A program made the position numbers and the translations under genes. This document shows positions 1,184-64,000 of a stretch of DNA of 64,000 nucleotides, piece by piece; position 1 is the stretch's first letter, and every line of letters starts with the position of its first letter. Origin of the DNA: Marsupella aquatica (Eukaryota > Plantae > Marchantiophyta); NCBI GenBank assembly GCA_973895155.1, contig OZ316896.1, positions 23,331,722 through 23,395,721 of the forward strand. Reading direction: 5' to 3'. The notes beneath the pieces are model-generated. The model worked only from the letters and a program-made list of their open reading frames with translations. It was not told the DNA's origin and ran no database searches.

Positions 1184-2900
1184 TCCAGGCCGCAACTTTC
1201 TCTTGGTCCACCTCAATGCCCCGTTTGGACACACGATGCCCGAGTAACACCCCCTCCTCTACCCCAAAGAAGCATTTGGCGGGATGTAGTTTGAGGTTAA
1301 CATCTTGGCATCGTTGCAACGTTCGTCGTAGGTGTTCGGGGTGCATGGCAACGGTTCCGAAGATGGCAAAGTCATCGATAAATATCTCCAAAAATTCCCG
1401 TAGGAAATCGTGGAAGATATTCATCATAAGGCGCTGAAACATAGCCGGGGCGTTACACAGACCAAAAGGCATCCTCCAAAATGCGAACGTCCCCCACTCC
1501 GTAGTGAAAGTTGTTTTGAGCTGATCCGCGAGACGAATCCAGATTTGGTTATAACCTGAATACCCGTCAAGAAATGTATAGATTTCATTTCGGGCCACCA
1601 TATCTAGAACCATATCCGTGAATGGTAATGGGTAATGGTCTTTTCGGGTTGCGTCATTCAGCTTACGGTAGTCCTGACAGATACGAATCTTAGGTTTTCC
1701 ATCCGTACCTCCCTTCTTTGGTACAATGACAATGGGAGAGACCCAGTCGCTGGCCATTACCGGGTAAATGATATCGGCGGCGAGGAGACGATCAATTTCC
1801 TCCTTCACTAAGATGGAGTACCTCGGATTCATGCGACGTTGTCGCTGTCGTACCGCATGGGCTCCTAGGTTCAGATCGATTGTGTGTTCTCCCAACTCGG
1901 GGGAGACGCTTGTTAAATCATGATGACTCCATGCAAACACATCTTCATATTCCTTGAGCAAAGCTTGGATGGATTTTTCAGCCTTCCCCGTCAGAGCGTG
2001 GCCCAGGTTAAAAGATTTGTCCATCCCAATAGTGTACTTCCGGTAGTGCTCCTTCATGATGACTTCAACCTGGTTTCGCAGACTCGGGTCCAGGCTCGCG
2101 TCAAGCTCAGCTAACCGAACTCCTCCGTACATGGGTGGGACCGGGATTGGTCTCGGGATGGGGTTTACGTCCTCCAATTGCGGAATGGACGGATCCCATG
2201 AGACTCGCTTTTTATGTCTCGGTCTCGAGTTTTCGGCCTCAGGTGGTTGTTGGGCTGGTTCATGGTTATGAGGCTCTGAAATGGAAGGAGTAGCCTCGGC
2301 TCCCTGCTTAGCTGGAGCCGTGTCCTCCGTCTCGATGAGTTGTTCGTGCGTTTCCTCATCCTTGACAGTAGATGTGCTTGGGGTGGACTTAATGGCAGCC
2401 CTCGGGTAATTTAGGAGATGTGTTTCTCGGGTTGCTTCAACTCCGAAGACATCTTCCTCGGATAGGGACGAGATGAGTTCGATCATATTGAGTTCCTCTT
2501 CCTCCGAGGTCTCCGAATCATATTCCTCGGGTCCTTGTGGGGTTTCTCCCTGATAATCGTCCATTGCCCAGGATACCCGTACGGTGGGTTCCCCGAACCG
2601 TAGCTCCTTCTTTCCCCAATCCGTGACTACGCGGCCACCGTACAACCACGGCCTGCCCAGAAGAACCGGATAAGAGGAGGGACGAACCGGCCTCATGACT
2701 AAGAAGTTGAGATAGAACTCTACCCCTCCCACCAGAGTGAGCACTCGTGTGAGCGTGCCTAATGGGAGGACCCTTGCCCCGTTTGCTAATCTGATAGCTC
2801 GGGCCGTGGGTTGATACGTGAGGTATCCTAACTTGACTGACGTTTCTTCAGTCATGATGTTGACTCCCGCTCCTCCGTCTACAAGAACCATCTTGATGGT
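1180..2900 (-). pseudogene. Ty3/Gypsy (Athila/Tat-like) pol fragment: aspartic protease plus most of the reverse transcriptase
   Basis: ORF 1176..2915: VLVDGGAGVNIM and LLGRPWL (protease); DYRKLN, LDGYSGYNQI, MPFGLCNAP, FIDDF, LLGH (RT). Truncated at both ends. Confidence 0.95.
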
Positions 2901-5900: not shown

Positions 5901-7564
5901 CGGCAAGTCCTCCTTCCTGGGTCTAAACACCTGCTCGATCGTAGGGCTAACAGGTGGTTGAGGCTTCTCAGCCAACGGCCTCGGCGTTGGAGCTTCCTCG
6001 GGTGCCCTTACCTGCAGGGGGAGTACCGGGGCAAAAGTCTGACCTCTGGCATACCGGCACAACAGCGGCATGTGATAGCCAAGCCGCGACACGCTCCCCA
6101 TGCCGATTACCTGCTGCTCCTCCTTTAAGATCTTCTTCAATTGGTTGAGGAGGTACCCGTTGTAGTCCCGGCTTGGGTCTGGCCTTTCTGCCAGATAGAC
6201 CTGTGCCTTGCCGATCTCTGCCCTCGGCAAGTTACAATGCATGGTCACCCGCAAGAAGTCAATCATCTCTCCTATGTGCGGGTTGGTGCAGGTGTTCCGG
6301 AAGAAGCCATTCTTCGTTGATGGCCCAGGGAACGACCGGAACTCCTTGTCAGGCAAGGTCTTCCTGGTATCAACTTTGGTCTTATTGCCTATCGGCAAGC
6401 CAAACACTTCGGCAATTACCTTGGGAGTAAGATAGAAATCCTTCCCATATATCCTCGTGCAATTGGTCTCGGGTTCCCATGACCCCACGAATTCTAATAG
6501 GTCTGACTCCGGTACCTCCGGCTTCAGCCATGGTAATCTTACAAAGGCCTCTAAGCCGGATCCGGCCATGAAGCCTTGGTACTTCTTGGTCTGCATGGCC
6601 GTGAAGCATGCATCCTCCTCCCGTGCAAAATGTAGTTGCACCTCCACCGGTAGGGTTGCCGCCCAGCCCTTCCAGGTGTCATCCCTGGTTGGAATGGCCT
6701 TGATGGGATCGACCTCCTCCTCTTCGGCTTCTCCCTGCCTCCTGCTCTGCTGCTTGGCTGGCTTCTTTGGTGCCGCCGACCTCGTTCTTTTTGCCGGGGT
6801 GGCTTCATCGTTGACGGCTCCCTTCCTCTTCATCCCTGCTGCCGTGGAGGTTTCTCCTAGCACCGTTGCCTGGGTCCACCTTTCCGTGCTTCCCTTTAAT
6901 TCCCAGTGTATGTCGTTGCAGTTCTTGATGGCCTCTCGGATGCCGACGACGCTGTCTTTGCAAAACAGAAGATCGTCGAGTTGATTGGAAGTAGGCGTCC
7001 ACAGGAACTCGTCCTTGATGAGTTCGCCTCCTAAGAAAGCCGTCTTCTGCAGCTCCCACAATCGAGCGAGCTCCTGCCGTTCTCGAGCTGCCCTTTCTGA
7101 TTCCTCGTCCTCGTAAGTCTTGATGTACTTAGTTGCCCGTTCGAACAGGCATCCCCAGAAATGTGCCGCTTGATTGACGTTGCTCATACCCTCCTTAGGT
7201 CGATCATCGATATCTACTCTCTCCCCGAGTGCTTGCCTAAGCAGCTGACAGTAGTTGGCCTCCCGTAGTCGTCTGCCTAGTTCGTGCTCGCAATATGAGC
7301 CACCATCTCCTGCAAGCGCTCCTTACCCCTCTCCTCTGCCGGTCCTTCTTCCCGTTGATCCTTCCTAGCCGCCGACGCTTAACGCGCCCTAACCCTAATC
7401 GAGTTTTCACCCTCAGCGTCCTTACCTCCGGCCTCGGCCCGGGTTCCATGGTTGCCCCTAATGGTTTATATTTTCCTTGTTTTGTCCCTATACTAAGGTG
7501 TTCCTAGGGTGCCTTCCTGGTTTACCCACTTAACTGGCCGAGTGATTCCTGTCTAGGCATCACA
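2901..7564 (-). mobile_element. Family-1 full-length LTR, copy B (4664 bp, no TSD)
   Basis: Minus strand starts TGTGATGCCTAG (7564) and ends GGGACGCACCACA (2901); colinear with 16463-21127 and 59154-63815. Confidence 0.92.
3813..7187 (-). CDS. LTR-encoded 1124-aa protein (PMD/Transposase_32-like domain, acidic region, long coiled coil, basic NLS-like patch)
   Basis: Uninterrupted ORF. LLEFVGSW...IYGKDFYLTPKVIAEVFGLP resembles plant-mobile-domain-like extra ORFs of Gypsy elements; E/K/L/Q heptad-rich C-terminal half; KKKKRKP. The 87-aa N-terminal extension seen in copy E is frameshifted here. Confidence 0.85.
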   Translation of the reverse strand: MSNVNQAAHFWGCLFERATKYIKTYEDEESERAARERQELARLWELQKTAFLGGELIKDEFLWTPTSNQLDDLLFCKDSVVGIREAIKNCNDIHWELKGSTERWTQATVLGETSTAAGMKRKGAVNDEATPAKRTRSAAPKKPAKQQSRRQGEAEEEEVDPIKAIPTRDDTWKGWAATLPVEVQLHFAREEDACFTAMQTKKYQGFMAGSGLEAFVRLPWLKPEVPESDLLEFVGSWEPETNCTRIYGKDFYLTPKVIAEVFGLPIGNKTKVDTRKTLPDKEFRSFPGPSTKNGFFRNTCTNPHIGEMIDFLRVTMHCNLPRAEIGKAQVYLAERPDPSRDYNGYLLNQLKKILKEEQQVIGMGSVSRLGYHMPLLCRYARGQTFAPVLPLQVRAPEEAPTPRPLAEKPQPPVSPTIEQVFRPRKEDLPMQQPGMQSLLKLLEKEKKSASATTTATATMQDTTTEVGLHRLTRENPFAGDKERIRPESKPGVRMYVGTSSSESEAELPEAPTDEEEREKPDVQEVEEAVEDCSHDNSGYGSDHHVPGVRTCGRFVPTLPRVVRGDPNQQSSPESPPPDVAPPSFDGIKQMVQEFQERIRQEEEAALAREKDLPGGDWPEDIRRLAEKGSKPLATIEEIRRTAWEQRPRWAMPITSTYSTYAKNRAMEYGEMCGELALNIFGEELEVGPFFHREQLEKHQLEEAVALERSKKDEVIRRLRRMEAEIEDLRAAKKAQDELRIKRHELNIMQGQLDTAQADNQNIKDKLTQTQGELADTIKEREKWKQELKNTEEAHITANSRAMAETQRKEWALKGELEKIRGALEQKEAELGKSYQGIMALQQELASLTASFKADLREKDDMLEQTYAKMNQMESVNIAELDKELRATREERTTLKQEREEAQKELEEARKDLDETQEELEEITRKMENLQRRADNQTERLKKQAAVFKCLSSSGPTPIGATKLPGVVLAEEKAVPTAPVPEVSGKGKGPAAEPEKKKKRKPSGSRSNPTPQAVVTKEVEPAPSSGMNPAKEPAIITGGGGAAQAELLSNEAGIPDPPLEQAGETVAEAEAVTDSQADAYADGGPSQADGELTQSRAGNLSGNEPTAVAEEEALGASIKDPPPVS

Positions 7565-9783
7565 CCGGTTTATCCCCACGCTTCCAAGAGTAGTTCGAGG
7601 GGACCCCACCCAGCAGAGTAGCCCCGAGTCTCCCCCACCAGATGTCGCTCCCCCAAGCTTTGACGGCATCAAGCAAACGGCACAAGAGTTTCAGAAGCAA
7701 CTTAGGGAGGAAGAGAAGGCAGCCCTGGCTAGGGAAAAAGATTTGCCAGGAGGAGATTGGCCGGAGGACATCAGGCGGCTTGCCGAAAAAAGAAACAACC
7801 CTCTTGCCACCATAGAAGAGATCCGCAAGACGGCTTGGGAATAGAGGCCGCGGTGGTTGATGCCGATGACTTCTACTTACTTCACCTATGCTAAAGATAG
7901 AGCCATGGAGTACGGGGAGATGTGTGGGGAACTTGCGCTCAGCATCTTTGGGGAGGAGTTGGAGCAGGGACCCTTTTTCCAGAGGGAGATGTTGGAGAAG
8001 CACCGATTAGAAGAAGTGGTGGCTTTGGAGAGAAACAAGAAGGACGAGGTCATCCAATGGCTTAGGGAGATGGAAGCCGAGGTGGAAGACCTGAAGATGG
8101 CCAAGAAAGCCCAAGATGAGCTACGGATCAAGCGGCATGAGCTAAACATCATGCAGGGGCAGTTGGATACCGCGTAGTCTGACAATCAGATTATCAAAGA
8201 TAAACTGACTCGGACCCAAGGAGAGTTGGCCGGCGCAGTCAAGGAAAAGGAGAAGTGGAAGCGGGAGCTAAGGGACGCAAAGGAGGCCCACTTAGCAGCC
8301 AACAATCGGGCCATGGCAGAGACCCAGAGAAAGGAGAGGGCATTAAAAGGGGAACTTGAGGATATCTGCGGAGCCCTTGAGCAGAAGGAGGCCGAATTAA
8401 GGAAAGCCTATCAAGGGATCATTGTGCTGCAGCAAGAGCTTGCATCCCTGACGGCCAGCTTCAAGGCCGACCTGCGGGAGAAAGACGACCAGCTCGATCA
8501 GACTTATGCCAAGATGAACAAGATGGAGTCTGAAGTCATGAAGGAGCTCGACAAGGAGCTAAGAGCAACCCAAGAAGAAAGGACTACCTTAGCAGAGGAG
8601 TTGCAAGCAGCCCAGAAGGAGTTGCAGGAGGCCCAAAAGGAGCGGGGGGAGGTATGAAAGGACCTAGACAAAACCCAAGAGGAGTTGGAGGAAATCACAA
8701 GGAAGATGGAGAACTTACAACGGCGGGCCGACAACCAAACAGAGCGGCTGAAGAAACAGGCCGCAGTATTCAAGTGCTTAGCTTCATCTGGTCCAATTGT
8801 GGGAACCCCGTTACCAGGAGTCGTACTGGCCAAAGGACAAGCCGAGACACACGCCCTGGCGCCGGAGGTAAGTGGCAAAGGGAAGGGACTAGCTGCCAAA
8901 ACAGGGAAGAAGAAGAAGCGGAGACCTTCTGGGTCTGGGAATTATACGACTCCTCAAGCCATGGTGACCAAGGAGGTAAACCAGTACCAAACTCCGGCAT
9001 CAACACGACGGTGGATCCACCGGTCCTAGGAAGTGGGGATGGCAAGGCCGAGGCCGGGACAACCAGTAAAGAGGCCAAGGTACCGGATCCTCCACTAGAA
9101 CATGTCGGGGAGGCCATAGCCATATCGGAAGCCGTGGCCAATGCTGAGGCCGAAGCCGAGGGGGGACCCAGTCAGGCCGATGAAGAGTTAACTCGGTCAG
9201 GGGCAGGTAATCTGTCAGAGGACGGACCAACGGCAGTGGTTGCGGAGGAAACGTTGGGGGCGTCCATTGAGGATCCACCACCGGTGTCGTGACGGTGCAA
9301 GGGCGCCGTTCCTTTTAGGGAGGGCGGACGTGGAGGTAGGAGGCATGACTGAGTGGGCAGGGCGGGCGCTGATCTCCAAGTTTAGACTTAGGATCAGGAC
9401 CAGGAGGCGGCCCTGACACTTAGATTAGTGGGATTGCGGATCCTTGGGTAAGGGCGAAACTTGTGCCCCTGCCTCTCTGTACTTAGGTAGATTACAGTTA
9501 GGTAGATTAGGCTTACGATGCAAGGAATTGGGCGGATCCACAGCCAGGATAAGTACCTGGGCTGCGGGGAGTTCACGGCCTCTTCTTTAGCAAGTTTTTA
9601 GTTGCACCAGCAGGGCTGGGATCAAGTAGTTGGAGAAGCTCTCGGTTAGTTATGCAGTGACCCTTGTGTATAATCATGTTTCCTCATGCCTAAGAGCTGA
9701 ATAGAGTTGGCCTCACGGCTTAGTTCGCAGAGCTTGTGTATGAGATGTACTGTTTGTATGGCAAGTGCATGGTATAACTCAGT
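7565..9783 (+). pseudogene. Family-1 LTR partial copy C (diverged subfamily; 3' half of the LTR ORF with stops, plus part of the non-coding LTR)
   Basis: ORF pieces 7857..8177, 8226..8657, 8685..9029 and 8654..9292 are homologous to the LTR protein; homology ends at GGTATAACTCAGT (9783). Confidence 0.9.
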
Positions 9784-14534: not shown

Positions 14535-14773
14535 ATGGAGAATGTAGACACATTTGCAATCGGAGATGTCTCGTTCTCGGAGACCGACCTTATTTCAAAA
14601 CATGTCATGTTCTTTGGGAAGGATTTCCGAGGGTTTAACAAAGAGCCTCCTAGGATTCCGCTATGTCGGTTGGTGCATATGGAGGTCGTCCGCACTTTGC
14701 AGAAAGATAGCTCCTCCATCGACAAGTTGAAAGACTCTTTCCGTAGTATGGGATACAATTCATCGATAGGTAT
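14535..14773 (+). pseudogene. Truncated ORF, possibly ParB/Srx-like N-terminus, divergent from the MULE transposase
   Basis: RIPLCRLVHMEVVRTLQKDSSSIDKLKDSFRSMGY fits the ParB-type pattern (IPL..L....R......I..L..SF...G); cut by LTR copy C'. Confidence 0.4.
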
Positions 14774-15628
14774 GAGGCGTGAGTGGGCAGGGCGGGCGCT
14801 GATCTCCAAGTTTAGACTTAGGATCAGGACCAGGAGGCGGCCCTGACACTTAGATTAGTGGGATTGCAGATCCTTGGGTAAGGGCGACACTTGTGCTCTT
14901 GCCTCTCTGTACATAGGTAGATTACAATTAGGTAGATTAGGCTTACGCTGCAAGGAATTGGGCGGATCCACAGTCAGGATAAGTACTTGGGCTGCGGGGA
15001 GCAAGGAGCCTCTTCTTTAGCAAGTTTTTAGTTGCACCAGCAGGGCTGGGATCAAGTAGTAAGAGAAGCTCTCAGTTAGTTATGCAGTGACCCTTGTGTA
15101 TCATCATGTTTCCTCATGCCTAAGAGCTGAATAGAGTTGGCCTCACGGCTTAGTTTGCAGAGCTTGTGTGTGAGATGTACTGTTTGTATGGCAAGTGCAT
15201 GGTATAACTCAGTCAGAAGGAGTCATTATGCTATTTGTGTGTCGCATTAACTTGTGTGAAGAGTGCCCACATCAACTAAGATAGGAAGGAAAGTAAGCAA
15301 GGGAGTGAGAGCTGGATGTGTCGAGCTGAGAGAGGTCTTAGCGGCTTAACCAAGCCAATTGGGGATCATTCCGGCGGCGGAATCCAAATATACCTAAAGA
15401 AGACGAGGGGAAGGCAAGGTAAGGCCTAGATTAGGCCGGCTACGTATCTCATGACCCAATGAAGGATCTGTCCAGTATATGTGTGTAAAGTGTTAATAAT
15501 AGCAGTAGAGGATTAGCAGCGTCCCATGCCGCTAAGCCGCGGAAACGGCCTCGCCGAGGATGAAACCTGCGGGAATCGGCTTGTGCAGGGGGGTTTCTTG
15601 GGTTTGGGGAGCCATGGGACGCACCACA
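14768..15628 (+). repeat. Family-1 5' LTR remnant, copy C' (last ~860 bp; same subfamily as copy C)
   Basis: Shares diagnostic variants with copy C (e.g. TTTAGACTTAGG); ends GCACCACA immediately before PBS and gag. Confidence 0.9.
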
Positions 15629-15632
15629 TTTT

Positions 15633-15651
15633 TGGCGCTAGATGGAGGGGG
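15633..15651 (+). promoter_or_regulatory. Primer-binding site of family 1 (TGGCGCTAGATGGAGGGGG)
   Basis: TGG start 4 nt after the LTR-terminal CA and upstream of gag; cognate tRNA not determined. Confidence 0.75.
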
Positions 15652-15889
15652 CATTTCTTAAGCCGTGAGATATGAAGTTAGGAAGGAAGCGTAGGTAATG
15701 ACTGACCCTACGCCGAGGGAGGAAAGAGCGATTCAACGGGAGAGAGCTCGTCTGCAGCAGCTCGCCGGGTGGCATGATACATAACGACTGAGAGGGGCAG
15801 AAAGAGCTAGTAGCTCCGTAACTGAAAGTGGCATCGAAGAAGACATACCAGAAGAAGAGTCGGTAAGGAGAAGTGAGTCTCCAACCGAC

Positions 15890-16462
15890 ATGGGGGAACC
15901 AGAGACACGGCCAAACGAGAGGCCAGGGACCAGACTGAGCCAACGGTCGCGCATTCATTACAAGGCCTTTCATGGGAGAGGAGATGAGGATCCGAACGAA
16001 TGGTTGGATGACTTCGAGGGAACCGCTACAGCAAATGGAGAATCGGCCATCAAGATGCAAATTCTTTCCGGCCTGTTCAAAGGTGAGGCTAGGCCGTGGT
16101 ACAGAGCATTGGACGTGGAAGATCAAGCCATCTGGAATACTTTCAGATCACTATTTGTCAAAGAATTTTGACCCATTGGAACTTCAGAGTTAGCAGTGCT
16201 GAAGTTGGGACGACTTTGGTTCAAGGAGAACAAATCCTTCAAAAAGTTCTTGCAACGCTTCCAAAAGCTGGTAAGACGTACAAAGACCAATGCATCTGAA
16301 GGTATGCAACTTCAATGGTTAGTGAATGCTTTGCCACAAAAGATGAGTTTTGCAATTAGGAAGGAGAACCCAGAGACCTTGGCCGAGGCAATTAAGGATA
16401 TTCAATTATACATTAATGCAGATATCACAAGCCGGAAGAAACAGCTTAAGTCTGAGAGTTCC
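15890..16462 (+). pseudogene. Retrotransposon gag fragment (in-frame stop; truncated by LTR copy D)
   Basis: FHGRGDEDPNEWLDDF, FKGEARPWY, WNTFRSLFVKEF (Retrotrans_gag-like); ORFs 15890..16171 and 16196..16474 are in the same frame. Confidence 0.85.
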
Positions 16463-19400
16463 TGTGATGCCTAGCCAGGAATCACTCGGCCAGTGAAGTG
16501 GGTAAAGCAAGAATGCACCCTGGAAACACCTTAGTATAGGGACAAAACAAGGAAAATATAAACAATTAGGGGCGACTATGGAACCCGGGCCGAGGCCGGA
16601 GGTAAGGGCGCTGGGGGTGAAAACTCGATTAGGGTTAGGGCGCGCTAAGCGTCGGCGGCTAGGAAGGATCAACGGGAGGAAGGACCGGAAGAGGAGAGGG
16701 GTAAGGAGCGCTTGCAAGAGATGGTGGCTCATTTGTGAGCACGAACTAGGCAGACGACTACGGGAGGCCAACTACTGTCAGTTGCTTAGGCAAGCACTCG
16801 GGGAGAGAATAGATACTAACGATCGACCTAAGGAGGGTATGAGCAACGTCAATCAAGCGGCACATTTCTGGGGATGCCTGTTCGAACGGGCAACTGAGTA
16901 CATCAAGACTTACGAGGACGAGGAATCAGAAAGGGCAGCTCGAGAACGGCAGGAGCTCGCTCGATTGTGGGAGCTGCAGAAGACGGCTTTCGTAGGAGGC
17001 GAACTCATCAAGGACGAGTTCTTGTGGACTCCTACTTCCAATCAGCTCGACGATCTTCTGTTTTGCAAAGACAGCGTCGTCAGCATCCGAGAGGTCATCA
17101 AGAACTGCAACGACATACACTGGGAATTGAAGGGTAGCACGGAAAGGTGGACCCAGGCAACGGTGCTAGGAGAAACCTCCACGGCAGCAGAGATGAAGAG
17201 GAAGGGAGCCGTCAACAATGAAGCCACCCCGGCAAAAAGAACGAGGTCGGCGGCACCAAAGAAGCCAGCCGAGTAGCAGAGCAGGAGGCAGGGAGAAGCC
17301 GAAGAGGAAGAGGTTGATCCCATCAAGGCCATTCCAACCAGGGATGACACCTGGAAGGGCTGGGCGGCAACCCTACCAGTGGAGGTGCAACTACATTTTG
17401 CACGGGAGGAGGATGCATGCTTTACGGCCATGCAGACCAAGAAGTACCAAGGCTTCATGGCCGGATCCGGCTTAGAGGCCTTTGTAAGATTACCATGGCT
17501 GAAGCCGGAAGTACCGGATTCAGACCTATTAGAATTCGTGGGGTCATGGGAACCCGAGACCAATTGCACGAGGATATATGGGAAGGATTTCTATCTTACT
17601 CCCAAAGTGATTGCCGAAGTGTTTGGCTTGCCGATAGGCAATAAGACCAAAGTTGATACCAGGAAGACCTTGCCTGACAAGGAGTTCCGGTCGTTCCCCG
17701 GGCCATCAACGAAGAATGGCTTCTTCCGGAACACCTGCACCAACCCGCACATAGGAGAGATGATCGACTTCTTGAGGGTGACCATGCATTGTAACTTGCC
17801 GAGGGCAGAGATCGGCAAGGCACAGGTCTATCTGGCAGAGAGGCCAGACCCAAGCCGGGACTACAACGGGTACCTCCTCAACCAATTGAAGAAGATCTTA
17901 AAGGAGGAGCAGCAGGTAATCGGCATGGGGAGCGTGTCGCGGCTTGGCTATCACATGCCGTTGTTGTGCCGGTATGCCAGAGGTCAGACTTTTGCCCCAG
18001 TACTTCCCCTGCAGGTAAGGGCACCCGAGGAAGCTCCAGCACCGAGGCCGGTAGCAGAGAAGCCTCAACCACCTGTTAGCCCTACGATCGAGCAGGTGTT
18101 TAGACCAAGGAAGGAGGACTTGCCGATGCAGCAACCAGGCATGCAGAGTCTGTTGAAACTACTGGAGAAAGAGAAGAGATCGGCATCGGCAACGGCAATG
18201 GCAACAATGCAGGACACTACTCCATAGGTAGGCTTACACCGGCTTACAAAAGAAAACCCCTTTGCTGGAGACAAGGAGAGAATCAGGCCAGAATCCAAGC
18301 TAGGTGTTCGAATGTATGTGGGAGTCTCAAGCTCTGAATCTGAGGCAGAATTGCCTGAAGCTCCTACCGACGAAGAGGAGAGGGAGAAGCCGGACGTCCA
18401 AGAAGTAGAGGAGGCAGTGGAGGACTGCAGCCATGATAACTCCGGCTATGGGTCGGACCATCATGTTCCAGGAGTAAGGACCTGTGGCCGGTTTGTCCCC
18501 ACACTTCCAAGGGTAGTACGAGGGGACCCCAACCAGCAGAGTAGCCCTGAGTCTCCCCCACCAGATGTTGCTCCCCCGAGCTTTGACGGCATAAAACAGA
18601 CGGCACAGGAATTTCAGGAGCGAATCAGGCAGGAAGAGGAGGCAGCCCTGGCTAGAGAAAAGGATTTTCCAGGAGGAGATTGGCCGGAGGACATCAGGCG
18701 GCTAGCCGAAAAAGGAAGCAAACCTCTAGCCACGATTGAAGAGATCCGCAAGACGGCTTGGGAGCAGAGGCCGCGATGGGCGATGCCGATCACTTCTACT
18801 TACTCCACCTACGCTAAGAATAGAGCCATGGAGTATGGTGAGATGTGTGGGGAACTTGCGCTCGGCATCTTTGGAGAGGAGTTGGAGGTAGGACCCTTTT
18901 TCCATAGGGAGCAGTTGGAGAAGCACCAATTAGAAGAAGCGGTGGCTTTAGAGAGAAGCAAGAAGGATGAGGTCATTCGGCGGCTTAGGAGGATGGAAGC
19001 CAAGATTGAAGATCTAAGGGCGGCCAAGAAAGCCCAAGATGAACTGCAGATTAAACGACATTAGCTGAACATCATGCAGGGGCAGTTGGACACCGCGCAG
19101 GCTGATAATCAGAATATCAAGGATAAACTGACTCAGACGCAGGGAGAGTTGGCCGATACGATCAAAGAGAGGGAGAAATGGAAGCGAGAGCTGAGGAATG
19201 CAGAGGAGGCCCACATAACAGCCAACAGCCGGGCCATGGCGGAAACCCAAAGAAAGGAATGGGCGTTGAAGGGGGAGCTCGAGAAAATCCGCGGAGCCCT
19301 TGAGCAGAAGGAGGCCGAGTTAGGAAAATCCTATCAAGGGATTATGGCGCTGCAGCAGGAGCTTGCGTCCCTAACGGCCAGCTTCAAGGCCGACCTAAGG

Positions 19401-21127
19401 GAGAAGGACGAGATGCTCGATCAGACTTACGCCAAGATGAATCAGATGGAGTCTGTCATCATTGCAGAGCTCGACAAGGAGCTAAGAGCAACCCGGGAGG
19501 AGAGGGCTACCTTGAAGAAAGAACGGGAGGAAGCCCAGAAGGAATTAGAGGAGGCGCGCAAGGACCTGGATGAGACCCAGGAGGAGTTGGAGGAAATCAC
19601 GAGGAAGATGGAGAACCTCCAGCAGCGGGCCGACAACCAAACAGAGCGGCTGAAGAAACAAGCCGCAGTATTTAAGTGCTTGTCTTCATCAGGCCCAACT
19701 CCAATTGGGGCAACCAAGTTACCAGGAGTGGCACTGGCCGAAGAAAAAGCCGCGCCACCTGCACCAGTGCCGGAAGTAAGTGGGAAGGGGAAGGGACCAG
19801 CTGCCGAACCAGAAAAGAAGAAGAAGCGGAAACCTTCAGGGTCAAGGAGTAATACGACTCCACTAGCCGTGGTGACCAAGGAGGTAGACCCAGCACCAAC
19901 CTCCGGCATGAACACAGAAATAGATCCCGCTATCACCAAGGGTGGGGAAGGTGCGGTCCAAGCCGAACTACTCAATCATGAGGCCGGTATCCTAGATCCG
20001 CCTCTTGAGCAAGCCGGGGAAACCGTAGCCGAGGCTGAGGCCGTAGCCGGGAATGATTCCTGAGCCGATGCCGACGCCGATGGTGGACCCAGTCAGGCCG
20101 ATGGAGAGTTGACTCAGTCAAGGGCAGGTAATTTGTCAGAAAACGAACCTACGGCAGTGGCTGAGGAGGAAGCGTTGGGGGCGTCCATTGAGGATCCACC
20201 ACCGGTGTCGTGACGGTGCAAGGGCGTCGTTCCTTTTAGGAAGGGCGGACGTGGAGGGAGGAGGCGTGAGTGGGCAGGGCGGGCGCTGATCTCCAAGTTT
20301 AGGATTAGGATCAGGACCAGGAGCGGCCCTGACACTTAGCTTAGTGGGATTGCGGTTCCACTGGTAGGAGCAACACTTGTGCTCCTGCCTTACTGTACAT
20401 AGGTAGTTTCGGGCAGGTAGATTACTGTTAGGTAGATTAGGCTTACGCTGCAAAGAATTAGGCGGATCCACTACCAGGATAAGTACCTGGGCAGCGGGGA
20501 GCTCAGGGTCTCTTCTTTAGCAAGTTTTTAGTTTGCACCAGCCGGGCTGGGATCAAGTATTAAGAGAAGCTCTCGGTTAGTCATACAGTGACCCTTGTGT
20601 ATATTCATGTTTCCTCATGCCTAAGAGCTGAATAGAGTTGGCCTCACGGCTTAGTTCGCAGAGCTTGTGTATGAGATGTACTGTTTGTATGGCAAGTGCA
20701 TGGTATGACTCAGTCAGAATGAGTCATTTTGCTATTTGTGTGTCGCATTAACTTGTGTGAAGAGTGCCCACATCAACCAGAAGGAAGGAAAGTAAGCAGG
20801 GGAGTGAGAGTTGGATGTGTCGAGCTGAGAGAGGTCTTAGCGGCTTAACCAAGCCTATTGGGGATCATTCCGGCGGCGGAATCCAAACATACCTAACAAG
20901 ACGGAGGGGAAGACGAGGGAAGGCCTAGATTAGGCCGGCTACGTATCTCATGACCCGATGAAGGATCTGTCCAGTATATGTGTGTAAATTGTTAATAGTA
21001 GTAGGAGAAGGTTAGCAGCGTCCCATGCCGCTAAGCCACGGAAACGGCCTCGCCAAGCGCGAAACCTGCGGGAATCGGCTTGAGCTGGGGGGTTTCTTGG
21101 GTTTAGGGAGCCATGGGACGCACCATA
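16463..21127 (+). mobile_element. Family-1 full-length LTR, copy D (4665 bp, no TSD)
   Basis: Starts TGTGATGCCTAG, ends GCACCATA (terminal CA changed to TA); colinear with B and E. Confidence 0.92.
16578..20213 (+). pseudogene. LTR-encoded protein, copy with several premature stops
   Basis: ORFs 16578..17276, 17379..18227, 18312..19064 and 19074..20063 tile the 1211-aa protein of copy E. Confidence 0.9.
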
Positions 21128-22111
21128 GGAGGTGTAGGTGCGGGTACGGGCACGGGTTGGCCGACACTGGTCATTGATGGTAGAGTTGCCATGAAATTCT
21201 GCAAGTGCCAGTGGAGGTTTTCTGACGCAAGTGGAGATGGTCATGTCGACCGGGTAGTGTTGAACTCGCCGGTAATGATAGCCCGGACCCGAGCGGGGAT
21301 GTGGTCGAAGTGGTGCCTCTGTAAATCGATCGTGCCCGGAATATTGAAGACCTCGTCCGGAAGGCGAAGCAGTGCTTCCCAGAAGCCGATGTATTTGCCT
21401 TCGTCAAAAAAGTACCCTGATACCTCCTCGGGTCGGTAAAGCTCGCTCTGGGATGGGTACTCAAAGTTAAGGAGATAGTGGTGGCGGCCTGCTAGGCAGA
21501 TGGCTCTCTCGTATTCGCGTTCGATCTCGTAACGGCGCAGGTTGGCATGTTTCAATGAGTCGGCCAAGTGTCCTCCGATAGACAGGAACTGAGTCCAAAA
21601 TCGTATGGCCGAACTGGAAAGGATCGTGTGCGACATTCAGAGGAGATAGCAGGTGACTAAGGAAAAGCGAGAGAGCTAGGATTAGAGCTGGCGCGTGGAC
21701 TGGAGAGCTTGGTGCACTGCAAAGGATCGGCCCCCTTTTTATACCCTGAGAGCTCGTCGATCGCCCGACGCCTCCTCATCGCTTATAGGTTGAGCCTTTC
21801 ACGCTCGTAGTATACCGGCCCCTGCTCCAGTCCGGGTCAGCTCGTGTTAGTGGCCGCCTCCCGGAGCTCGTTATACGGACCCGAGGGAGGGGGAAAAAGG
21901 GCCCATGACACGCTCGCAACCCGGGCGTGCGAATGGCGATCCGCCGCCAGCCCGAACATGGATTCCCCTTATTGACTAAGGATTTCCTACTCATAATGGC
22001 TACCTAAGTACTATTGTTATGCTAATAATAACGGCCTCAGATACCCCTAACGCACGTGCTAAGCGCGGTTAGACTGAATTACTCAATACCCATCGTACCG
22101 GTGGCGTCACA
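21128..22111 (-). mobile_element. Family-2 LTR-like repeat, copy 1 (5' ~1 kb, interrupted by family-1 LTR D)
   Basis: Minus strand starts TGTGACGCCACCGGTAC; homologous to 58160-59153; contains a TATAAAAAGGGG box and an ORF. Confidence 0.75.
21241..21636 (-). CDS. Family-2 ORF of unknown function (131 aa to a TGA; the frame continues to the insertion point at 21128)
   Basis: MSHTILSSSAIRFWTQF...; conserved with 58637-59153 with many synonymous changes. Confidence 0.6.
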   Translation of the reverse strand: MSHTILSSSAIRFWTQFLSIGGHLADSLKHANLRRYEIEREYERAICLAGRHHYLLNFEYPSQSELYRPEEVSGYFFDEGKYIGFWEALLRLPDEVFNIPGTIDLQRHHFDHIPARVRAIITGEFNTTRST

Positions 22112-38926: not shown

Positions 38927-38963
38927 AATCTTACCAGCTCAGCTCCCTCCCCACTCCACCATC

Positions 38964-58159: not shown

Positions 58160-59153
58160 TGTGATGCCACCGGTACGGCGGGTAATGAGTGATTCGGTCT
58201 AACTGCGCTTAACACGCGCGTTAGGGGTATCTTAGACCGCTATTATTAGCATAACGACAATATTTAGGTAGCCATTATAAGTAGGAATCATTAGTCAATA
58301 AGGGGATTCATGTTCGGTCTGGTGGCGGGTCGCCATTCCGCACGCCCGGGTTGCGAGCGTGAATGGGCCCCTTTTTCCCCTCCTCCCTCGGGTCCGTATA
58401 ACAAACTTCAGGAGGCGGCCACTGACACGCGCTGACTCGGACCGGCGGAGTGGCCGGTACTCTGCAAGCGTGAAAGGTTCGGCCTATAAGCAACGATGAG
58501 GCGTCGGGCGATCGATGAGCTCTCAGGGTATAAAAGGGGGGTCGATCCTTTGCAGTGCACCAGTTCTTCAGTCCACGCGCTAGCTTCGACCCCAGCTCTC
58601 TCGTTCTTTCTTAGTCGCCACTGCTATCTCCTCTGAATGTCGCACACAATCCTTTCTAATTTGGCCGTTTGATTCTAGACGCAGTTCCTGTCTACCGGAG
58701 GGCACTTGGCCGATTCATTGAAATACGCCAACCCGCGGCAATACGAAATCGAACGCAAATATGAGAGAGCCATCCGCCTAGCAGGCCGCCACCACTATCT
58801 CCTTAACTTTGGATACCCGTCCCAGAGCGAGCTTTACCGACCCGAAGAGATATCAGAGTACTTCTTTGACAGCGGCAAATATATTGGCTTCTGGGAAGCG
58901 TTACTTCGGCTTCTGGACGCGGTCTTCTCTATCCCGGGCACGATTGATTTACAGCGGCACCATTTTGACCACATCCCTGCTTGGGTCCAGGCCATCATTA
59001 ACAGCGAGTTCAGCACTACTCGGGCAACAAGACCGTCTATGTCTACTTTGGAAGACCTCCATCGGCACCTGCAGAACTTCATGGGAACCTGACCATCAAC
59101 CAACGTGGCCAACTCAGCCGTGCCCGAGCCCGTGCCCGTACCCGCACCGACAC
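58160..59153 (+). mobile_element. Family-2 LTR-like repeat, copy 2 (interrupted by family-1 LTR E)
   Basis: Starts TGTGATGCCACCGGTAC; TATAAAAGGGGG at ~58529; homologous to the reverse complement of 21128-22111. Confidence 0.75.
58637..59153 (+). pseudogene. Family-2 ORF copy with premature stops
   Basis: ATG at 58637 (MSHTILS) in frame with ORF 58706..59092; frame continues into PVPVPAPT up to the LTR. Confidence 0.6.
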
Positions 59154-62100
59154 TGTGGTGCGTCCCATGGCTCCCTAAACCCAAGAAACCCCCCAGCTCA
59201 AGCCGATTCCCGCAGGTTTCGCGCTTGGCGAGGCCGTTTCCGCGGCTTAGCGGCATGGGACGCTGCTAACCTCTACTACTACTGTTAACATTTTACACAC
59301 ATATACTGGACAGATCCTTCATCGGGTCATGAGATACGTAGCCGGCCTAATCTAGGCCTTCCCCTGTCTTCCCCTCCGTCTTGTTAGGTATGTTTGGATT
59401 CCGCGGCCGGAATGATCCCCAATAGGCTTGGTTAAGCCGCTAAGACCTCTCTCAGCTCGACACATCCAACTCTCACTCCCCTGCTTACTTTCCTTCCTTC
59501 TGGTTGATGTGGGCACTCTTCACACAAGTTAATGCGACACACAAATAACAAAATGACTCATTCTGACTGAGTCATACCATGCACTTGCCATATAAACAGT
59601 ACATCTCATACACAAGCTCTGCGAACTAAGCCGTGAGGCCAACTCTATTCAGCTCTTAGGCATGAGGAAACATGAATATACACAAGGGTCACTGTATGAC
59701 TAACCGAGAGCTTCTCGTACTACTTGATCCCAGCCCGGCTGGTGCAAACTAAAAACTTGCTAAAGAAGAGGCCCTGAGCTCCCCGCTGCCCAGGTACTTA
59801 TCCTGGTAGTGGATCCGCCATTCTTTGCATCGTAAGCCTAATCTACCTAACAGTAATCTACTTGCCCGAATCTACCTATGTACAGCAAGGCAGGAGCACA
59901 AGTGTTGCTCCTACCAGTGGAACCGCAATCTCACTAAGCTAAGTGTCAGGGCCGCTCCTGGTCCTGATCCTAATCCTAAACTTGGAGATCAGCGCCCGCC
60001 CTGCCCACTCACGCCTCCTCCCTCCACGTCCGCCCTCCCTAAAAGGAACGGCGCCCTTGCACCGTCACGACACCGGTGGAGGATCCTTAATGGACGCCCC
60101 CAACGCTTCCTCCTCAGCCACTGCCGTAGGTTCATTCTCTGACAGATTACCTGCCCTTGACTGAGTCAACTCTCCATCGGCCTGACTGGGTCCACCATCG
60201 GCGTCGGCATCGGCTCGGGAATCGGTTACGGCCTCAGCCTCGGCTACGGTCTCCCCGGCCTGCTCAAGAGGCGGATCTGGAATACCGGCCTCATTACTGA
60301 GTAGTTCGGCTTGGGCCGCACCACCCCCACCTGTGATGATAGCGGGATCTATTGCCGTATTCATGCCGGAGGATGGTGCTGGTTCTACCTCCTTGGTCAC
60401 CACGGCTTGTGGAGTCGGATTACTCCTTGACCCTGAAGGTTTCCGCTTTTTCTTCTTTTCTGGTTCGGCAGCTGGTCCCTTCCCCTTCCCACTTACTTCC
60501 GGCACTGGTGCAGGTGGCGCGGCTTTTTCTTTGGCCAGTACCACTCCTGGTAACTTGGTTGCCCCAATTGGAGTTGGGCCTGATGAAGACAAGCACTTAA
60601 ATACTGCGGCTTGTTTCTTCAACCGCTCCGTTTGGTTGTCGGCCCGCCGCTGGAGGTTCTCCATCTTCCTCGTGATTTCCTCCAACTCCTCCTGGGTCTC
60701 ATCCAGGTCCTTGCGTGCCTCCTCTAGTTCCTTTTGGGCTTCCTCCCGTTCTTGTTTCAAGGTAGTCCTCTCCTCCCGGGTTGCTCTTAGCTCCTTGTCG
60801 AGCTCTGCAATGATGACAGACTCCATCTGGTTCATCTTGGCGTAAGTCTGTTCGAGCATCTCGTCCTTCTCCCTTAGGTCGGCCTTGAAGCTGGCCGTCA
60901 GGGACGCAAGCTCCTGCTGCAGCGCCATAATCCCTTGATAGGATTTCCCTAACTCGGCCTCCTTCTGCTCAAGGGCTCCATGGATTTTCTCGAGCTCCCC
61001 CTTCAACGCCCATTCCTTTCTTTGGGTCTCCGCCATGGCCCGGTTGTTGGCTGTTATGTGGGCCTCCTCTGTATTCTTCAGCTCTTGCTTCCACTTCTCC
61101 CTCTCTTTGATCGTGTCGGCCAACTCTCCCTGCGTCTGAGTCAGTTTATCCTTGATATTCTGATTATCAGCCTGCGCGGTGTCCAACTGCCCCTGCATGA
61201 TGTTCAGCTCATGTCGTTTAATCCGCAGTTCATCTTGGGCTTTCTTGGCCGCCCTTAGATCTTCAATCTCGGCTTCCATCCTCCTAAGCCGTCGAATGAC
61301 CTCGTCCTTCTTGCTTCTCTCTAAAGCCACCGCTTCTTCTAATTGGTGCTTCTCCAACTGCTCCCTATGGAAAAAGGGTCCTACCTCCAACTCCTCTCCA
61401 AAGATGCCGAGCGCAAGTTCCCCACACATCTCACCATACTCCATGGCTCTATTCTTAGCGTAGGTGGAGTAAGTAGAAGTGATCGGCATCGCCCATCGCG
61501 GCCTCTGGTCCCAAGCCGTCTTGCGGATCTCTTCAATCGTGGCTAGAGGTTTGCTTCCTTTTTTGGCTAGCCGCCTGATGTCCTCCGGCCAATCTCCTCT
61601 TGGTAAATCCTTTTCCCTAGCCAGGGCTGCCTCCTCTTCCTGCCTGATTCGCTCCTGAAATTCCTGCACCGTCTGTTTTATGCCGTCGAAGCTCGGGGGA
61701 GCAACATCTGGTGGGGGAGACTCAGGGCTACTTTGCTGGTTGGGGTCCCCTCGCACTACCCTTGGGAGTGTGGGGACAAACCGGCCACAGGTCCTTACTC
61801 CTGGAACGTGATGGTCCGACCCATAGCCGGAATTATCATGGCTGCAGTCCTCCACTGCCTCCTCTACTTCTTGGACGTCCGGCTTCTCCCTCTCTTCTTC
61901 GTCGGTAGGAGCTTCAGGCAATTCTACCTCAGATTCGGAGCTTGAGATTCCCACATACATTCGAACACCTGGCTTGGATTCCGGCCTGATTCTCTCCTTG
62001 TCTCCAGCAAAGGGGTTTTCTCTTGTGAGCCGGTGTAGGCCTACCTCTGTAGTAGTGTCCTGCATTGTTGCCGTTGCCGTTGTTGTTGCCGATGCCGATT

Positions 62101-63815
62101 TCTTTTCTTTCTCCAGTAGTTTCAGCAGACTCTGCATACCTGGTTGCTGCATCGGCAAGTCCTCCTTCTTGGGCCTAAACACCTGCTCGATCGTAGGGCT
62201 AACAGGTGGTTGAGGCTTCTCAGCCAACGGCCTCGGCGTTGGAGCTTCCTCGGGTGCCCTTACCTGCAGGGGAAGTACTGGGGCAAAAGTCTGACCTCTG
62301 GCATACCGGCACAACAGCGGCATGTGATAGCCAAGTCGCGACACGCTCCCCATGCCGATTACCTGCTGCTCCTCCTTTAAGATCTTCTTCAATTGGTTGA
62401 GGAGGTACCCGTTGTAGTCCCGGCTTGGGTCTGGCCTTTCTGCCAGATAGACCTGTGCCTTGCCGATCTCTGCCCTCGGCAAGTTACAATGCATGGTCAC
62501 CTGCAAGAAGTCGATCATCTCTCCTATGTGCGGGTTGGTGCAGGTGTTCCGGAAGAAGCCATTCTTCGTTGATGGCCCGGGGAACGACCGGAACTCCTTG
62601 TCAGGCAAGGTCTTCCTGGTATCAACTTTGGTCTTATTGCCTATCGGCAAGCCAAACACTTCGGCAATTACCTTGGGAGTAAGATAGAAATCCTTCCCAT
62701 ATATCCTCGTGCAATTGGTCTCAGGTTCCCATGACCCCACGAATTCTAATAGGTCTGACTCCGGTACCTCCGGCTTCAGCCATGGTAATCTTACAAAGGC
62801 CTCTAAGCCGGATCCGGCCATGAAGCCTTGGTACTTCTTGGTCTGCATGGCCGTAAAGCATGCATCCTCCTCCCGTGCAAAATGTAGTTGCACCTCCACC
62901 GGTAGGGTTGCCGCCCAGCCCTTCCAGGTGTCATCCCTGGTTGGAATGGCCTTGATGGGATCGACCTCCTCCTCTTCGGCTTCTCCCTGCCTCCTGCTCT
63001 GCTGCTCGGCTGGCTTCTTTGGTGCCGCCGACCTTGTTCTTTTTGCCGGGGTGGCTTCATCGTTGACGGCTCCCTTCCTCTTCATCTCTGCTGCCGTGGA
63101 GGTTTCTCCTAGCACCGTTGCCTGGGTCCACCTTTCCGTGCTACCCTTTAATTCCCAGTGTATGTCGTTGCAGTTCTTGATGGCCTCTCGGATGCCGACG
63201 ACGCTGTCTTTGCAAAACAGAAGATCGTCGAGTTGATTGGAAGTAGGCGTCCACAGGAACTCGTCCTTGATGAGTTTGCCTCCTAAGAAAGCCGTCTTCT
63301 GCAGCTCCCACAATCGAGCGAGCTCCTGCCGTTCTCGAGCTGCCCTTTCTAATTCCTCGTCCTCGTAAGTCTTGATGTACTCAGTTGCCCGTTCGAACAG
63401 GCATCCCCAGAAATGTGCCGCTTGATTGACGTTGCTCATACCCTCCTTAGGTCGATCGTCGGTATCTACTCTCTCCCCGAGTGCTTGCCTAAGCAGCTGA
63501 CAGTAGTTGGCCTCCCGTAGTCGTCTGCCTAGTTTGTGCTCGCAAATGAGCCACCATCTCCTGCAAGCACTCCTTACCCCTCTCCTCTGCCGGTCCTTCT
63601 TCCCGTTGATCCTTCCTAGCCGCCGACGCTTAACGCGCCCTAACCCTAATCGAGTTTTCACCCTCAGCGTCCTTACCTCCGGCCTCGGCCCGGGTTCCAT
63701 GGTTGCCCCTAATGGTTTATATTTTCCTTGTTTTGTCCCTATACTAAGGTGTTCCTAGGGTGCCTTCCTGCTTTACCCACTTAACTGGCCGAGTGATTCC
63801 TGTCTAGGCATCACA
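59154..63815 (-). mobile_element. Family-1 3' LTR, copy E (4662 bp), of an element extending beyond the window
   Basis: Preceded on the minus strand by the integrase C-terminus and PPT; TGTGATGCC...GCACCACA. Confidence 0.93.
60065..63700 (-). CDS. LTR-encoded protein, intact 1211 aa (1124 aa from the MSNV start)
   Basis: Uninterrupted ORF entirely within the LTR; nearly identical to 3813..7187. Confidence 0.88.
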   Translation of the reverse strand: MEPGPRPEVRTLRVKTRLGLGRVKRRRLGRINGKKDRQRRGVRSACRRWWLICEHKLGRRLREANYCQLLRQALGERVDTDDRPKEGMSNVNQAAHFWGCLFERATEYIKTYEDEELERAARERQELARLWELQKTAFLGGKLIKDEFLWTPTSNQLDDLLFCKDSVVGIREAIKNCNDIHWELKGSTERWTQATVLGETSTAAEMKRKGAVNDEATPAKRTRSAAPKKPAEQQSRRQGEAEEEEVDPIKAIPTRDDTWKGWAATLPVEVQLHFAREEDACFTAMQTKKYQGFMAGSGLEAFVRLPWLKPEVPESDLLEFVGSWEPETNCTRIYGKDFYLTPKVIAEVFGLPIGNKTKVDTRKTLPDKEFRSFPGPSTKNGFFRNTCTNPHIGEMIDFLQVTMHCNLPRAEIGKAQVYLAERPDPSRDYNGYLLNQLKKILKEEQQVIGMGSVSRLGYHMPLLCRYARGQTFAPVLPLQVRAPEEAPTPRPLAEKPQPPVSPTIEQVFRPKKEDLPMQQPGMQSLLKLLEKEKKSASATTTATATMQDTTTEVGLHRLTRENPFAGDKERIRPESKPGVRMYVGISSSESEVELPEAPTDEEEREKPDVQEVEEAVEDCSHDNSGYGSDHHVPGVRTCGRFVPTLPRVVRGDPNQQSSPESPPPDVAPPSFDGIKQTVQEFQERIRQEEEAALAREKDLPRGDWPEDIRRLAKKGSKPLATIEEIRKTAWDQRPRWAMPITSTYSTYAKNRAMEYGEMCGELALGIFGEELEVGPFFHREQLEKHQLEEAVALERSKKDEVIRRLRRMEAEIEDLRAAKKAQDELRIKRHELNIMQGQLDTAQADNQNIKDKLTQTQGELADTIKEREKWKQELKNTEEAHITANNRAMAETQRKEWALKGELEKIHGALEQKEAELGKSYQGIMALQQELASLTASFKADLREKDEMLEQTYAKMNQMESVIIAELDKELRATREERTTLKQEREEAQKELEEARKDLDETQEELEEITRKMENLQRRADNQTERLKKQAAVFKCLSSSGPTPIGATKLPGVVLAKEKAAPPAPVPEVSGKGKGPAAEPEKKKKRKPSGSRSNPTPQAVVTKEVEPAPSSGMNTAIDPAIITGGGGAAQAELLSNEAGIPDPPLEQAGETVAEAEAVTDSRADADADGGPSQADGELTQSRAGNLSENEPTAVAEEEALGASIKDPPPVS

Positions 63816-64000
63816 TAGCTCCCCACTTAATTGTGAAGCGTCCTCGCGAACCACTTCATCTTCGTCCATATAGTATTTCTTGAGGCGGTCATAATGGATG
63901 CGAACTGGATATACCTCTCCCGTAATGTTGGCCAATTGTACGAAGCCATTGGGGAACATCATGGTTACTCTAAAGGGTCCTAACCAGCGAGTGTAAAGCT
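63804..64000 (-). CDS. Gypsy integrase C-terminus (GPF/Y motif), partial; stop codon lies inside the LTR
   Basis: Manual translation: LYTRWLGPFRVTMMFPNGFVQLANITGEVYPVRIHYDRLKKYYMDEDEVVREDASQLSGELCDA*; no chromodomain. Confidence 0.88.
   Translation of the reverse strand, partial: LYTRWLGPFRVTMMFPNGFVQLANITGEVYPVRIHYDRLKKYYMDEDEVVREDASQLSGELCDA
63816..63829 (-). promoter_or_regulatory. Polypurine tract of family 1
   Basis: AAGTGGGGAGCTA directly 5' of TGTGATGCC on the minus strand. Confidence 0.8.

Follow-up and report, generated by a model that had tools for sequence, protein, structure and literature searches.

A large selected gene inside the long terminal repeat of a Ty3/gypsy retrotransposon from the liverwort Marsupella aquatica

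Can the long terminal repeat (LTR) of a plant retrotransposon be, for most of its length, a gene? This question is raised by a repeat of about 4.66 kilobases (kb) in Marsupella aquatica, found in a stretch of 64,000 nucleotides (nt) from contig OZ316896.1 (assembly GCA_973895155.1, positions 23,331,722 to 23,395,721 of the forward strand; this whole stretch is called the window below, and all coordinates refer to it). Plant LTRs are usually taken as non-coding and extra open reading frames (ORFs) as internal, whereas here a selected gene of 3.4 kb lies inside the LTR. Our reading, to which we assign a probability of about 0.45, is that this Ty3/gypsy LTR holds a gene under selection for a protein of approximately 1,124 amino acids (aa), likely a nuclear, DNA-binding protein with a VANC/PMD fold that counters the silencing of the element's own copies. 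The layout itself (a gene inside an LTR) is well supported. The analysis draws on the window, on assembled contigs from four public runs, on protein searches, on two fold models and on the literature.

Termini of the 4.66 kb repeat

A self-BLAST of the window identifies three full-length copies of the repeat: E (59154..63815, minus strand, 4,662 base pairs [bp]), B (2901..7564, minus, 4,664 bp, 98.2% identical to E) and D (16463..21127, plus, 4,665 bp, 96.3% identical to E). Three further copies are partial: A (1..1183, plus) is a fragment of the ORF, 99% identical to E; F (7565..9783, plus) is a fragment of an older subfamily, 83% identical to E, that retains the ORF's 3' half and a portion of the tail behind it; and C (14768..15628, plus) is the last 861 bp of an older-subfamily LTR, 90% identical to E. 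The 5' terminus TGTGATGCC is common to B, D and E. The 3' terminus GCACCACA is found in B and E and, with one substitution, in D, such that two of the three full copies end in CA. Apart from the 3' flanks of D and E, the six flanks of these copies are mutually unrelated. The three full copies of 4,662 to 4,665 bp with shared ends, described in an earlier sequence-only reading of this DNA, are thus confirmed.

Copy E (TGTGATGCC...GCACCACA) is the 3' LTR of an element that continues beyond the window. Directly before it lies a polypurine tract (PPT; 63816..63830, minus), which is contained in an upstream coding frame (63804..63998, minus) that continues across the PPT to a stop codon at LTR nt 10-12; hence, there is no spacer between pol and the LTR. 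We take this frame to be the likely C-terminus of the integrase because of its position and a GPY/F-type motif. Pfam gives no match for it, and a second gypsy element of the window has an integrase tail to which it is only weakly similar (E 0.52). Therefore, where the sequence-only reading had fixed the 5' end of the repeat by integrase and then PPT, the PPT stands and the integrase is a likely assignment.

At the opposite end, the GCACCACA end of copy C directly precedes a primer-binding site (about 15633..15651, plus), followed by a leader and a broken gag (15652..16462, plus) that is cut by D and has weak Pfam matches (Retrotrans_gag, E 0.015; Ty3_capsid, E 0.024). The primer-binding site is presumably of the tRNA-Asn type. 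Sites of this type are listed for Athila, TatII and Retand (PMC6317226). A 260-letter contig of run X6 links the LTR end, the primer-binding site and gag independently of copy C, so the proposed order at the 3' end also holds, with the qualification that C is not full length.

Additional junctions are available outside the assembled window. A 376-letter X6 contig that matches LTR nt 1-270 halts exactly at the terminal TG and continues into neither PPT/integrase nor gag; it is a further independent 5' LTR junction. The 5' end of D breaks the gag behind C, and this gag continues past the junction in 5 contigs of run X1 and 15 contigs of run X2, indicating that the 5' end of D is an insertion end. 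At 59154, 33 X2 contigs leave the stretch with mixed continuations (agreement 0.39), the majority resembling the primer-binding site. With a PPT on one side, a primer-binding site on the other and its ends shared between independent junctions, the 4.66 kb unit acts as a single LTR: it is what the integrase handles as such, at least in the young subfamily (B, D and E). It is also very probably the LTR of intact elements, each of which would then carry two copies of the gene.

At least half of the repeat's sampled words are present in five runs from 3 studies; no RNA data set is among the 17 runs listed, which does not bear on expression. The LTR family, including adjoining gag, pol and integrase pieces, makes up 33% of the window. 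The median summed contig depth of the tail relative to the ORF is 0.95, 1.41, 1.22 and 0.64 in the four runs, and that of the 5' part of the LTR relative to gag is 2.63, 2.51 and 2.18 in three of them (X6 was omitted for its patchy gag cover); these ratios fit a long LTR, but such depth is no copy number and was not used as evidence. No Rfam match is found in 57800-64000. A unit consisting of a short LTR, the ORF and a second short LTR was considered and rejected, as the 4.66 kb repeat has no internal direct repeat longer than 32 nt.

Several features of the window weigh against a 4.66 kb LTR. There is no complete element within the 64 kb. B and D are isolated copies around which no target-site duplication is found, the two flanks of each coming from different targets (the 5' end of B lies within the older copy F and its 3' end within a protease gene); this would fit recombination between two elements. 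Copy C, the sole LTR directly before the primer-binding site, measures 861 bp and is without the ORF; a second PPT-like tract is followed by a TG, and the left end of C falls 3-10 nt inside this TG. As a separate observation, the 3' end of B meets the protease gene at 2900/2901 and the 5' end of D meets gag at 16462/16463, each in the orientation of the element itself. Autointegration circles would be expected to yield these two types of junction, and nesting plus recombination explains them too.

The second PPT-like tract with its TG (60025..60043, minus; LTR nt 3773-3790) is found in E, B, D and F, approximately 20-40 nt past the ORF stop, and possibly marks where an older LTR started or serves as another plus-strand primer. 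It is one of 23 tract-plus-TG sites in the repeat at a loose threshold. The block 60025-60052 is kept in all copies and, judging from loose contig ends, seems to be kept in a diverged relative with different flanks: the contigs of this relative depart from the sequence at two positions that bracket the tract, 60052 (8 and 35 contigs) and 59994 (18 and 1). This would fit a conserved cis element, although the two ends perhaps do not lie on the same molecules, and the block could act as an additional, functional primer of the plus strand. At LTR nt 3790, the best 24 of 1,582 rows show no clustering of loose ends.

These data allow the proposal that the true LTR is only about 870 bp long and that, in the older subfamily (C and F) if not elsewhere, the ORF is an ordinary extra ORF at the 3' side of the internal region; the short LTR would come from priming of the plus strand at that second tract, and C would be a genuine 5' LTR. 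Of all copies, C alone stands before a primer-binding site, and it is without the ORF; a random break would fall as close to a tract-plus-TG site in approximately 5% of cases given 23 sites (the tract was noticed while examining C, which bears on how this figure is read). Furthermore, subfamily variants are common to C and F, and since F is truncated at either side, the 5' end of the older subfamily is not seen; a short LTR is conceivable there. The proposal fails for the young subfamily, where B and D start in unrelated DNA at the same TGTG that in E comes right after the PPT, and where an independent contig begins at this TGTG as well. The left junction of C also lacks the predicted TG: it joins an interrupted transposon frame (14217-14774) with a microhomology of 6 of 7 nt, and the natural continuation of that frame is present as a loose end at 14777 in 6 contigs. 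The missing TG, the microhomology and this continuation suggest that C is an LTR truncated by deletion. We thus regard a short LTR as improbable even for the older subfamily. A short 5' LTR without the ORF is what the sequence-only reading had named as evidence against itself; copy C is such an LTR at face value, and a probable deletion product on closer reading.

Coding capacity, selection and transcription

How much of this LTR is coding? From the first ATG (LTR nt 116; 63700), the sense ORF of copy E comprises 1,211 aa and 78% of the repeat. From the second in-frame ATG (nt 377/378), it comprises 1,124 aa and 72% of the repeat (60065..63439, minus; LTR nt 377-3751). Translation likely begins at the second ATG: upstream of it, B carries a frameshift, the 87 codons between the two show no significant constraint (dN/dS 0.32, p 0.26; 0.73, p 0.53), and the start methionine of one homologue falls at nearly the same place. 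In B, where this is the sole open start, the ORF is open from 7187 to 3813 (1,124 aa). The ORF is consequently open in two of the three full copies, D having premature stops at E residues 251, 570, 849 and 1180. Hence, the sequence-only reading was correct in the proportion of the repeat occupied and in the copies that are intact, but its protein of about 1,200 aa is more likely one of 1,124 aa.

The ORF is under purifying selection. Over residues 106-1229, dN/dS is 0.27 between E and B (31 synonymous and 29 replacement changes; p 8e-7) and 0.22 between E and D (p 1e-14), and over the 560 codons shared by E and F it is 0.27 (dS 0.45, p 2e-22). Constraint is strongest in a core domain (residues 280-494; dN/dS 0.04 and 0.08), followed by a coiled-coil region (0.17-0.19) and the last 180 residues (0.48-0.62). 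Such selection implies that the gene is used by replicating elements, and the neutral evolution once considered as the opposite outcome is not observed. The alternative, that the ORF is captured cargo without use and is open only because the copies are young, could draw on the stops in D and F and on the hypothetical nature of its function. It is largely refuted by dN/dS: per site, synonymous changes exceed replacement changes 4- to 5-fold at three depths (dS 0.04, 0.09 and 0.45) and 12- to 25-fold in the core domain, and this domain is retained in relatives at 22-43% identity. We give unused cargo almost no weight.

The remaining 911 bp of the LTR (59154..60064, minus) form a non-coding tail, which likely holds the genomic promoter, the repeated region (R) and the unique 5' region (U5). 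It contains a near-invariant block of approximately 110 nt that is found in five copies. Among its small repeats are GTAGATT in tandem (two to three copies) and GATTAGG; the 7-mers reach two to three tandem copies in one case and three to four copies in another.

A TATAAA (63716..63721, minus) lies at LTR nt 95 of copy E and at the same position in B and D, as had been noted from the sequence, and is a candidate promoter of the LTR gene; usual TATA spacing would place the transcript start at or after nt 116. We consider it likely that the gene would occupy the unique 3' region (U3) and be read from this TATA box, with the genomic RNA starting in the 911 bp tail, as for the sag gene of mouse mammary tumour virus (MMTV). 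Alternatively, the TATA box could be the genomic promoter, in which case U3 would be only about 125 nt long, the gene would be the first cistron (in R/U5) and gag-pol would be expressed through splicing. No further TATA(A/T)A occurs in any full copy, and AATAAA is absent from the repeat. By general LTR biology, such an arrangement would need a minus-strand strong-stop DNA of 4.5 kb and a poly(A) site that is ignored in the 5' LTR, and the near-invariant block of the tail could itself be a TATA-less promoter. We therefore judge it to be unlikely. The general layout of R, U5 and PPT in LTR elements is described in PMC12789967.

There are two tracts to consider for the origin of this layout, the working PPT within the integrase frame and the PPT-like one shortly after the gene; based on these two positions, we propose that plus-strand priming moved from the latter to the former, and that this shift would have turned an ordinary internal 3' extra ORF into U3. 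The odds of this step appear even to us, and the second tract makes it a concrete and checkable route for LTR growth and gene capture. With the gene in U3, each solo LTR produced by recombination would stay a promoter-plus-gene cassette, and copy B is such a cassette by sequence. A solo LTR would then be a leftover gene cassette rather than a leftover promoter, and annotation tools that mask LTRs or limit their length would miss genes of this kind.

The protein and its possible function

The protein consists, in order, of a conserved N-terminal region, a basic linker, the core domain, a linker rich in proline and acidic residues, a heptad-rich stretch, a KKKKRK patch and an acidic tail. The N-terminal region (63101..63439, minus; ~110 aa) has three homologues at 34-41% identity and no Pfam match. 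The core globular domain (62291..62881, minus; ~200 aa) is discussed below. The heptad-rich stretch (60620..61357, minus) is 246 aa in length, free of proline and predicted to form a coiled coil: in a windowed test its heptad score is 0.44, against 0.27 +/- 0.03 in shuffles, and is reached by none of 300 shuffles (a global Fourier test was uninformative). KKKKRK (60440..60457, minus) is a candidate nuclear localisation signal by its type of motif. Of two features noted earlier, the basic patch is present and the coiled coil is predicted. No membrane helix is found in the protein (the best 19-residue Kyte-Doolittle mean is 0.83), and an env-like role was rejected for this reason.

A HMMER search with residues 106-505 against 1.84 billion representative sequences returned 21 matches at E <= 0.001, the best with 41% identity over 225 aa (E 9e-49). 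One of these, P0010, was dropped as spurious, being a bacterial-type repeat protein by Pfam; the other 20 look like true relatives. Two proteins of the liverwort Calypogeia fissa were named among the 10 homologues looked up and two more were found later, all with approximately 24-26% identity. The heptad-rich stretch behind the domain is also present in P0011 and in the P0015/P0027 cluster. At E <= 0.1, Pfam gives only sub-threshold coiled-coil matches for the whole ORF; a word-index protein search over the full-length range, searches of viral and metagenomic contigs with the protein and with a 26-nt pattern and sequence searches of the PDB gave nothing or nothing meaningful.

The identity of the core domain is approached through its fold. 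In the ESM Atlas, it lies nearest to plant clusters with DUF1985 (0.86-0.88) and PMD (0.86-0.87). The fold of PMD is also that of VANC's DUF1985 domain (PMC13547354; bioRxiv 2024.09.27.615353), and on the basis of this published link, VANC was named as the target ahead of a wide fold search. With the better of our two models (20 sequences, mean pLDDT 60), the structure of VANC21 bound to DNA (9lnk) ranks first of 48,161 chains, with a Z score of 3.6, an rmsd (root mean square deviation) of 6.2 and 174 of 197 residues aligned at a sequence identity of 6%; the longest other alignment among the best 50 rows has 124 residues. We consider it probable that the domain has the remote VANC/DUF1985/PMD-type fold suggested by these comparisons. 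The PMD-like domain of the sequence-only reading thus survives as a lead from Atlas and fold comparison, and finds no match in Pfam.

From this fold, and by analogy to VANC, the protein would enter the nucleus, oligomerise through its coiled coil, bind short motifs in the LTR and oppose DNA methylation or Polycomb silencing in trans, keeping the promoters of the family open. We put forward the oligomerisation, motif binding and opposition to silencing as a tentative proposal, somewhat short of even odds. The chromatin or anti-silencing role guessed earlier accordingly has weak but converging support on the side of fold and Atlas, with the function itself drawn by analogy.

A number of results speak against this assignment. 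The Atlas scores come from one source and, being below 0.9, are a lead only. With the poorer model (pLDDT 49), VANC21 is 18th (Z 2.9, rmsd 6.8, 116 residues aligned), although its alignment is still the longest among the matches listed. A Z score of 3.6 is low and tied with many unrelated rows, and the two models share one alignment. Foldseek comparison with viral and PDB libraries gives no match at E <= 0.001, and Pfam searches with the core domain and 29 homologous or cluster-member proteins (E <= 1 or 10) detect none of PMD (PF10536), DUF1985 (PF09331), Transposase_32 or Athila ORF-1. The heptad-rich window is absent from four of the seven homologous proteins checked. Repeated motifs in the tail are only slightly above chance in shuffles (p 0.016 for 6- and 7-mers, no excess for 8-mers), and no large motif arrays like the tandem ones of VANDAL elements were found in this LTR. 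Finally, a shared fold shows no function.

If the link to VANC and PMD holds, the element allows a direct test of an existing question, the role of PMD-type accessory proteins in retrotransposons, and is relevant to whether VANC originated from host MAIN-like genes or from older mobile-element proteins. In the most far-reaching version, a VANC-like anti-silencing gene came into the LTR of a liverwort gypsy lineage when this lineage switched to a PPT inside integrase, and solo LTRs act as autonomous de-silencing cassettes; we hold this to be doubtful as a whole. If true, each element would carry the gene twice and deletion of elements by the host would multiply a counter-defence gene. It would also mean a sequence-specific anti-silencing factor on an LTR retrotransposon, and a VANC fold on mobile elements outside flowering plants.

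Neighbouring elements and known systems

Two pieces of a second LTR-like family lie tail-to-tail with copies of the repeat: one of ~990 bp (58160..59152, plus) is 1 bp away from E, and one of ~980 bp (21133..22111, minus) is 5 bp away from D. They begin TGTGA(T/C)GCC, as the 4.66 kb LTR family does, and the ends of the two families are much alike. The two pieces are 83.5% identical overall and 76% identical in the 300 bp by the junction, and the adjoining LTR ends of D and E are 97% identical; possibly, these are two independent insertions at one site, i.e. targeted integration.

A related proposal is that the LTR-borne protein steers integration, with the core domain tethering the integration complex to chosen DNA or chromatin. 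D is inserted in gag and B in protease and an older LTR copy, D and E end 1-5 bp from the 3' end of two different second-family copies, and a chromodomain seems to be absent since the upstream frame stops at LTR nt 12. However, with the family filling 33% of the window, chance alone should produce nesting. Two junctions do not suffice and might also stem from one old junction with later exchange of LTRs, and by fold the leads are regulators of expression rather than integration factors. We regard integration steering as unlikely, though less so than either the short LTR or the genomic promoter at nt 95, and favour a role in expression for the LTR-borne protein.

The second family has a TATA box at nt ~370 and an ORF from nt ~477 to the 3' end of each piece (21133-21636, minus; 58637-59152, plus). 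This ORF is under selection (dN/dS 0.19 over 131 codons, p 7e-9), and has no Pfam match; either another LTR-borne gene or a gag beginning within the LTR is conceivable. Homology between it and the N-terminus of the LTR-borne protein, plausible by eye, failed in comparison (BLASTP E 3.9; hhalign probability 1.9%).

The rest of the window contains remains of other elements and a few genes. Other transposon remains occupy 9784-14774 between F and C, with a 337 aa frame (11881-12894, minus) and the frame that is cut at the C junction (14217-14774, plus), neither with a Pfam match. Two decayed elements of the long interspersed nuclear element (LINE) type, 22719-28164 (plus) and 34271-41022 (minus), are in opposite orientation and 65-67% alike in two stretches; DUF4283 is found in the frame 39931-41022, and the endonuclease and reverse transcriptase (RT) frames were recognised by eye only. 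Behind the first LINE is an unrelated gypsy element (28145-31990, plus), with protease, RT and ribonuclease H (RNase H) by Pfam and integrase by eye. An intronless frame of 515 aa (46092-47639, plus) has a fungal-type protein kinase domain (PF17667, E 1.9e-6), and seems to resemble Crinkler-associated kinases. A likely piece of a host gene with DUF2043 (49011-50103, minus; E 2e-26) and a broken Harbinger-type DDE transposase (54524-55756, plus; PF13359, E 1.7e-23) complete the set.

To place the 4.66 kb LTR family among known gypsy elements, its pol pieces must be taken from different elements. Beside B is a protease-RT fragment (1184..2900, minus), probably of the same family, in which protease is followed by RT with no RNase H between them; before E, the likely integrase end abuts the LTR and leaves no room for a chromodomain. 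An extra archaeal-type RNase H is found neither between protease and RT (its place in TatI/II) nor after integrase (its place in TatIII), the interval between RNase H and integrase lying outside the window. Tat, Phygy, Selgy and Athila elements have been reported from a liverwort genome (PMC12885004).

The nearest parallels to the layout are viral. In MMTV, the entire sag gene lies in U3, and in HIV-1 nef lies partly in U3 (PMC12789967); as in these viruses (PMC12789967), a coding gene lies inside the LTR, with which it would be duplicated at each reverse transcription. Unlike MMTV and HIV-1, the element here is a plant Ty3/gypsy retrotransposon, and its gene of 1,124 aa takes up 72% of the 4.66 kb LTR. 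The LTR-borne protein has no membrane helix, whereas Sag belongs to the type II membrane proteins (PMC12789967).

Among plant elements, extra ORFs are common in Athila, Ogre and Retand, with PMD in 434 Ogre elements (PMC6317226; PMC9289625). In the surveys cited here, these ORFs are described as internal, mostly between pol and the 3' LTR, and often antisense (PMC7264820; PMC11963269; PMC6317226). Ogre LTRs of 1.9-6.5 kb are treated as non-coding there (PMC6431247). The LTR-borne gene resembles the extra ORFs of OTA elements (PMD/PF10536 in Ogre, Transposase_28 in Retand, Athila ORF-1) in being an accessory gene, apparently of a gypsy element outside the chromoviruses, and in its probable PMD-like globular domain. 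Its predicted coiled coil has a counterpart in the SMC-like coiled coils of some Retand and Ogre proteins (PMC6317226), and its LTR approaches the 5-6.5 kb lengths that occur in Ogre. It differs from the OTA extra ORFs in being in sense orientation and inside the LTR, in a pol without a 3' spacer and in having no Pfam match to those families. A literature search, covering titles and the beginnings of abstracts with subscription papers mostly outside its reach, found no report of an ORF inside a plant LTR.

With VANC of the VANDAL (Mutator-like) transposons and the host PMD-C proteins MAIN, MAIL1 and MAIL2, the LTR-borne protein likely shares its predicted core fold. Published work reports that VANC removes methylation through short motifs in non-coding DNA, and that host PMD-C proteins oppose Polycomb silencing (bioRxiv 2024.09.27.615353). 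VANC21 and Athila accessory proteins are predicted to oligomerise by coiled coil (PMC13547354), and the protein described here is likewise a transposon accessory protein with a predicted coiled coil. In contrast to VANC, which is found on DNA transposons and has been called dicot-specific (PMC13547354), the host element is an LTR retrotransposon, and anti-silencing is proposed by analogy. What is new in this comparison is an MMTV-type layout in a plant retrotransposon, a very large gene within it and a plausible link to anti-silencing factors.

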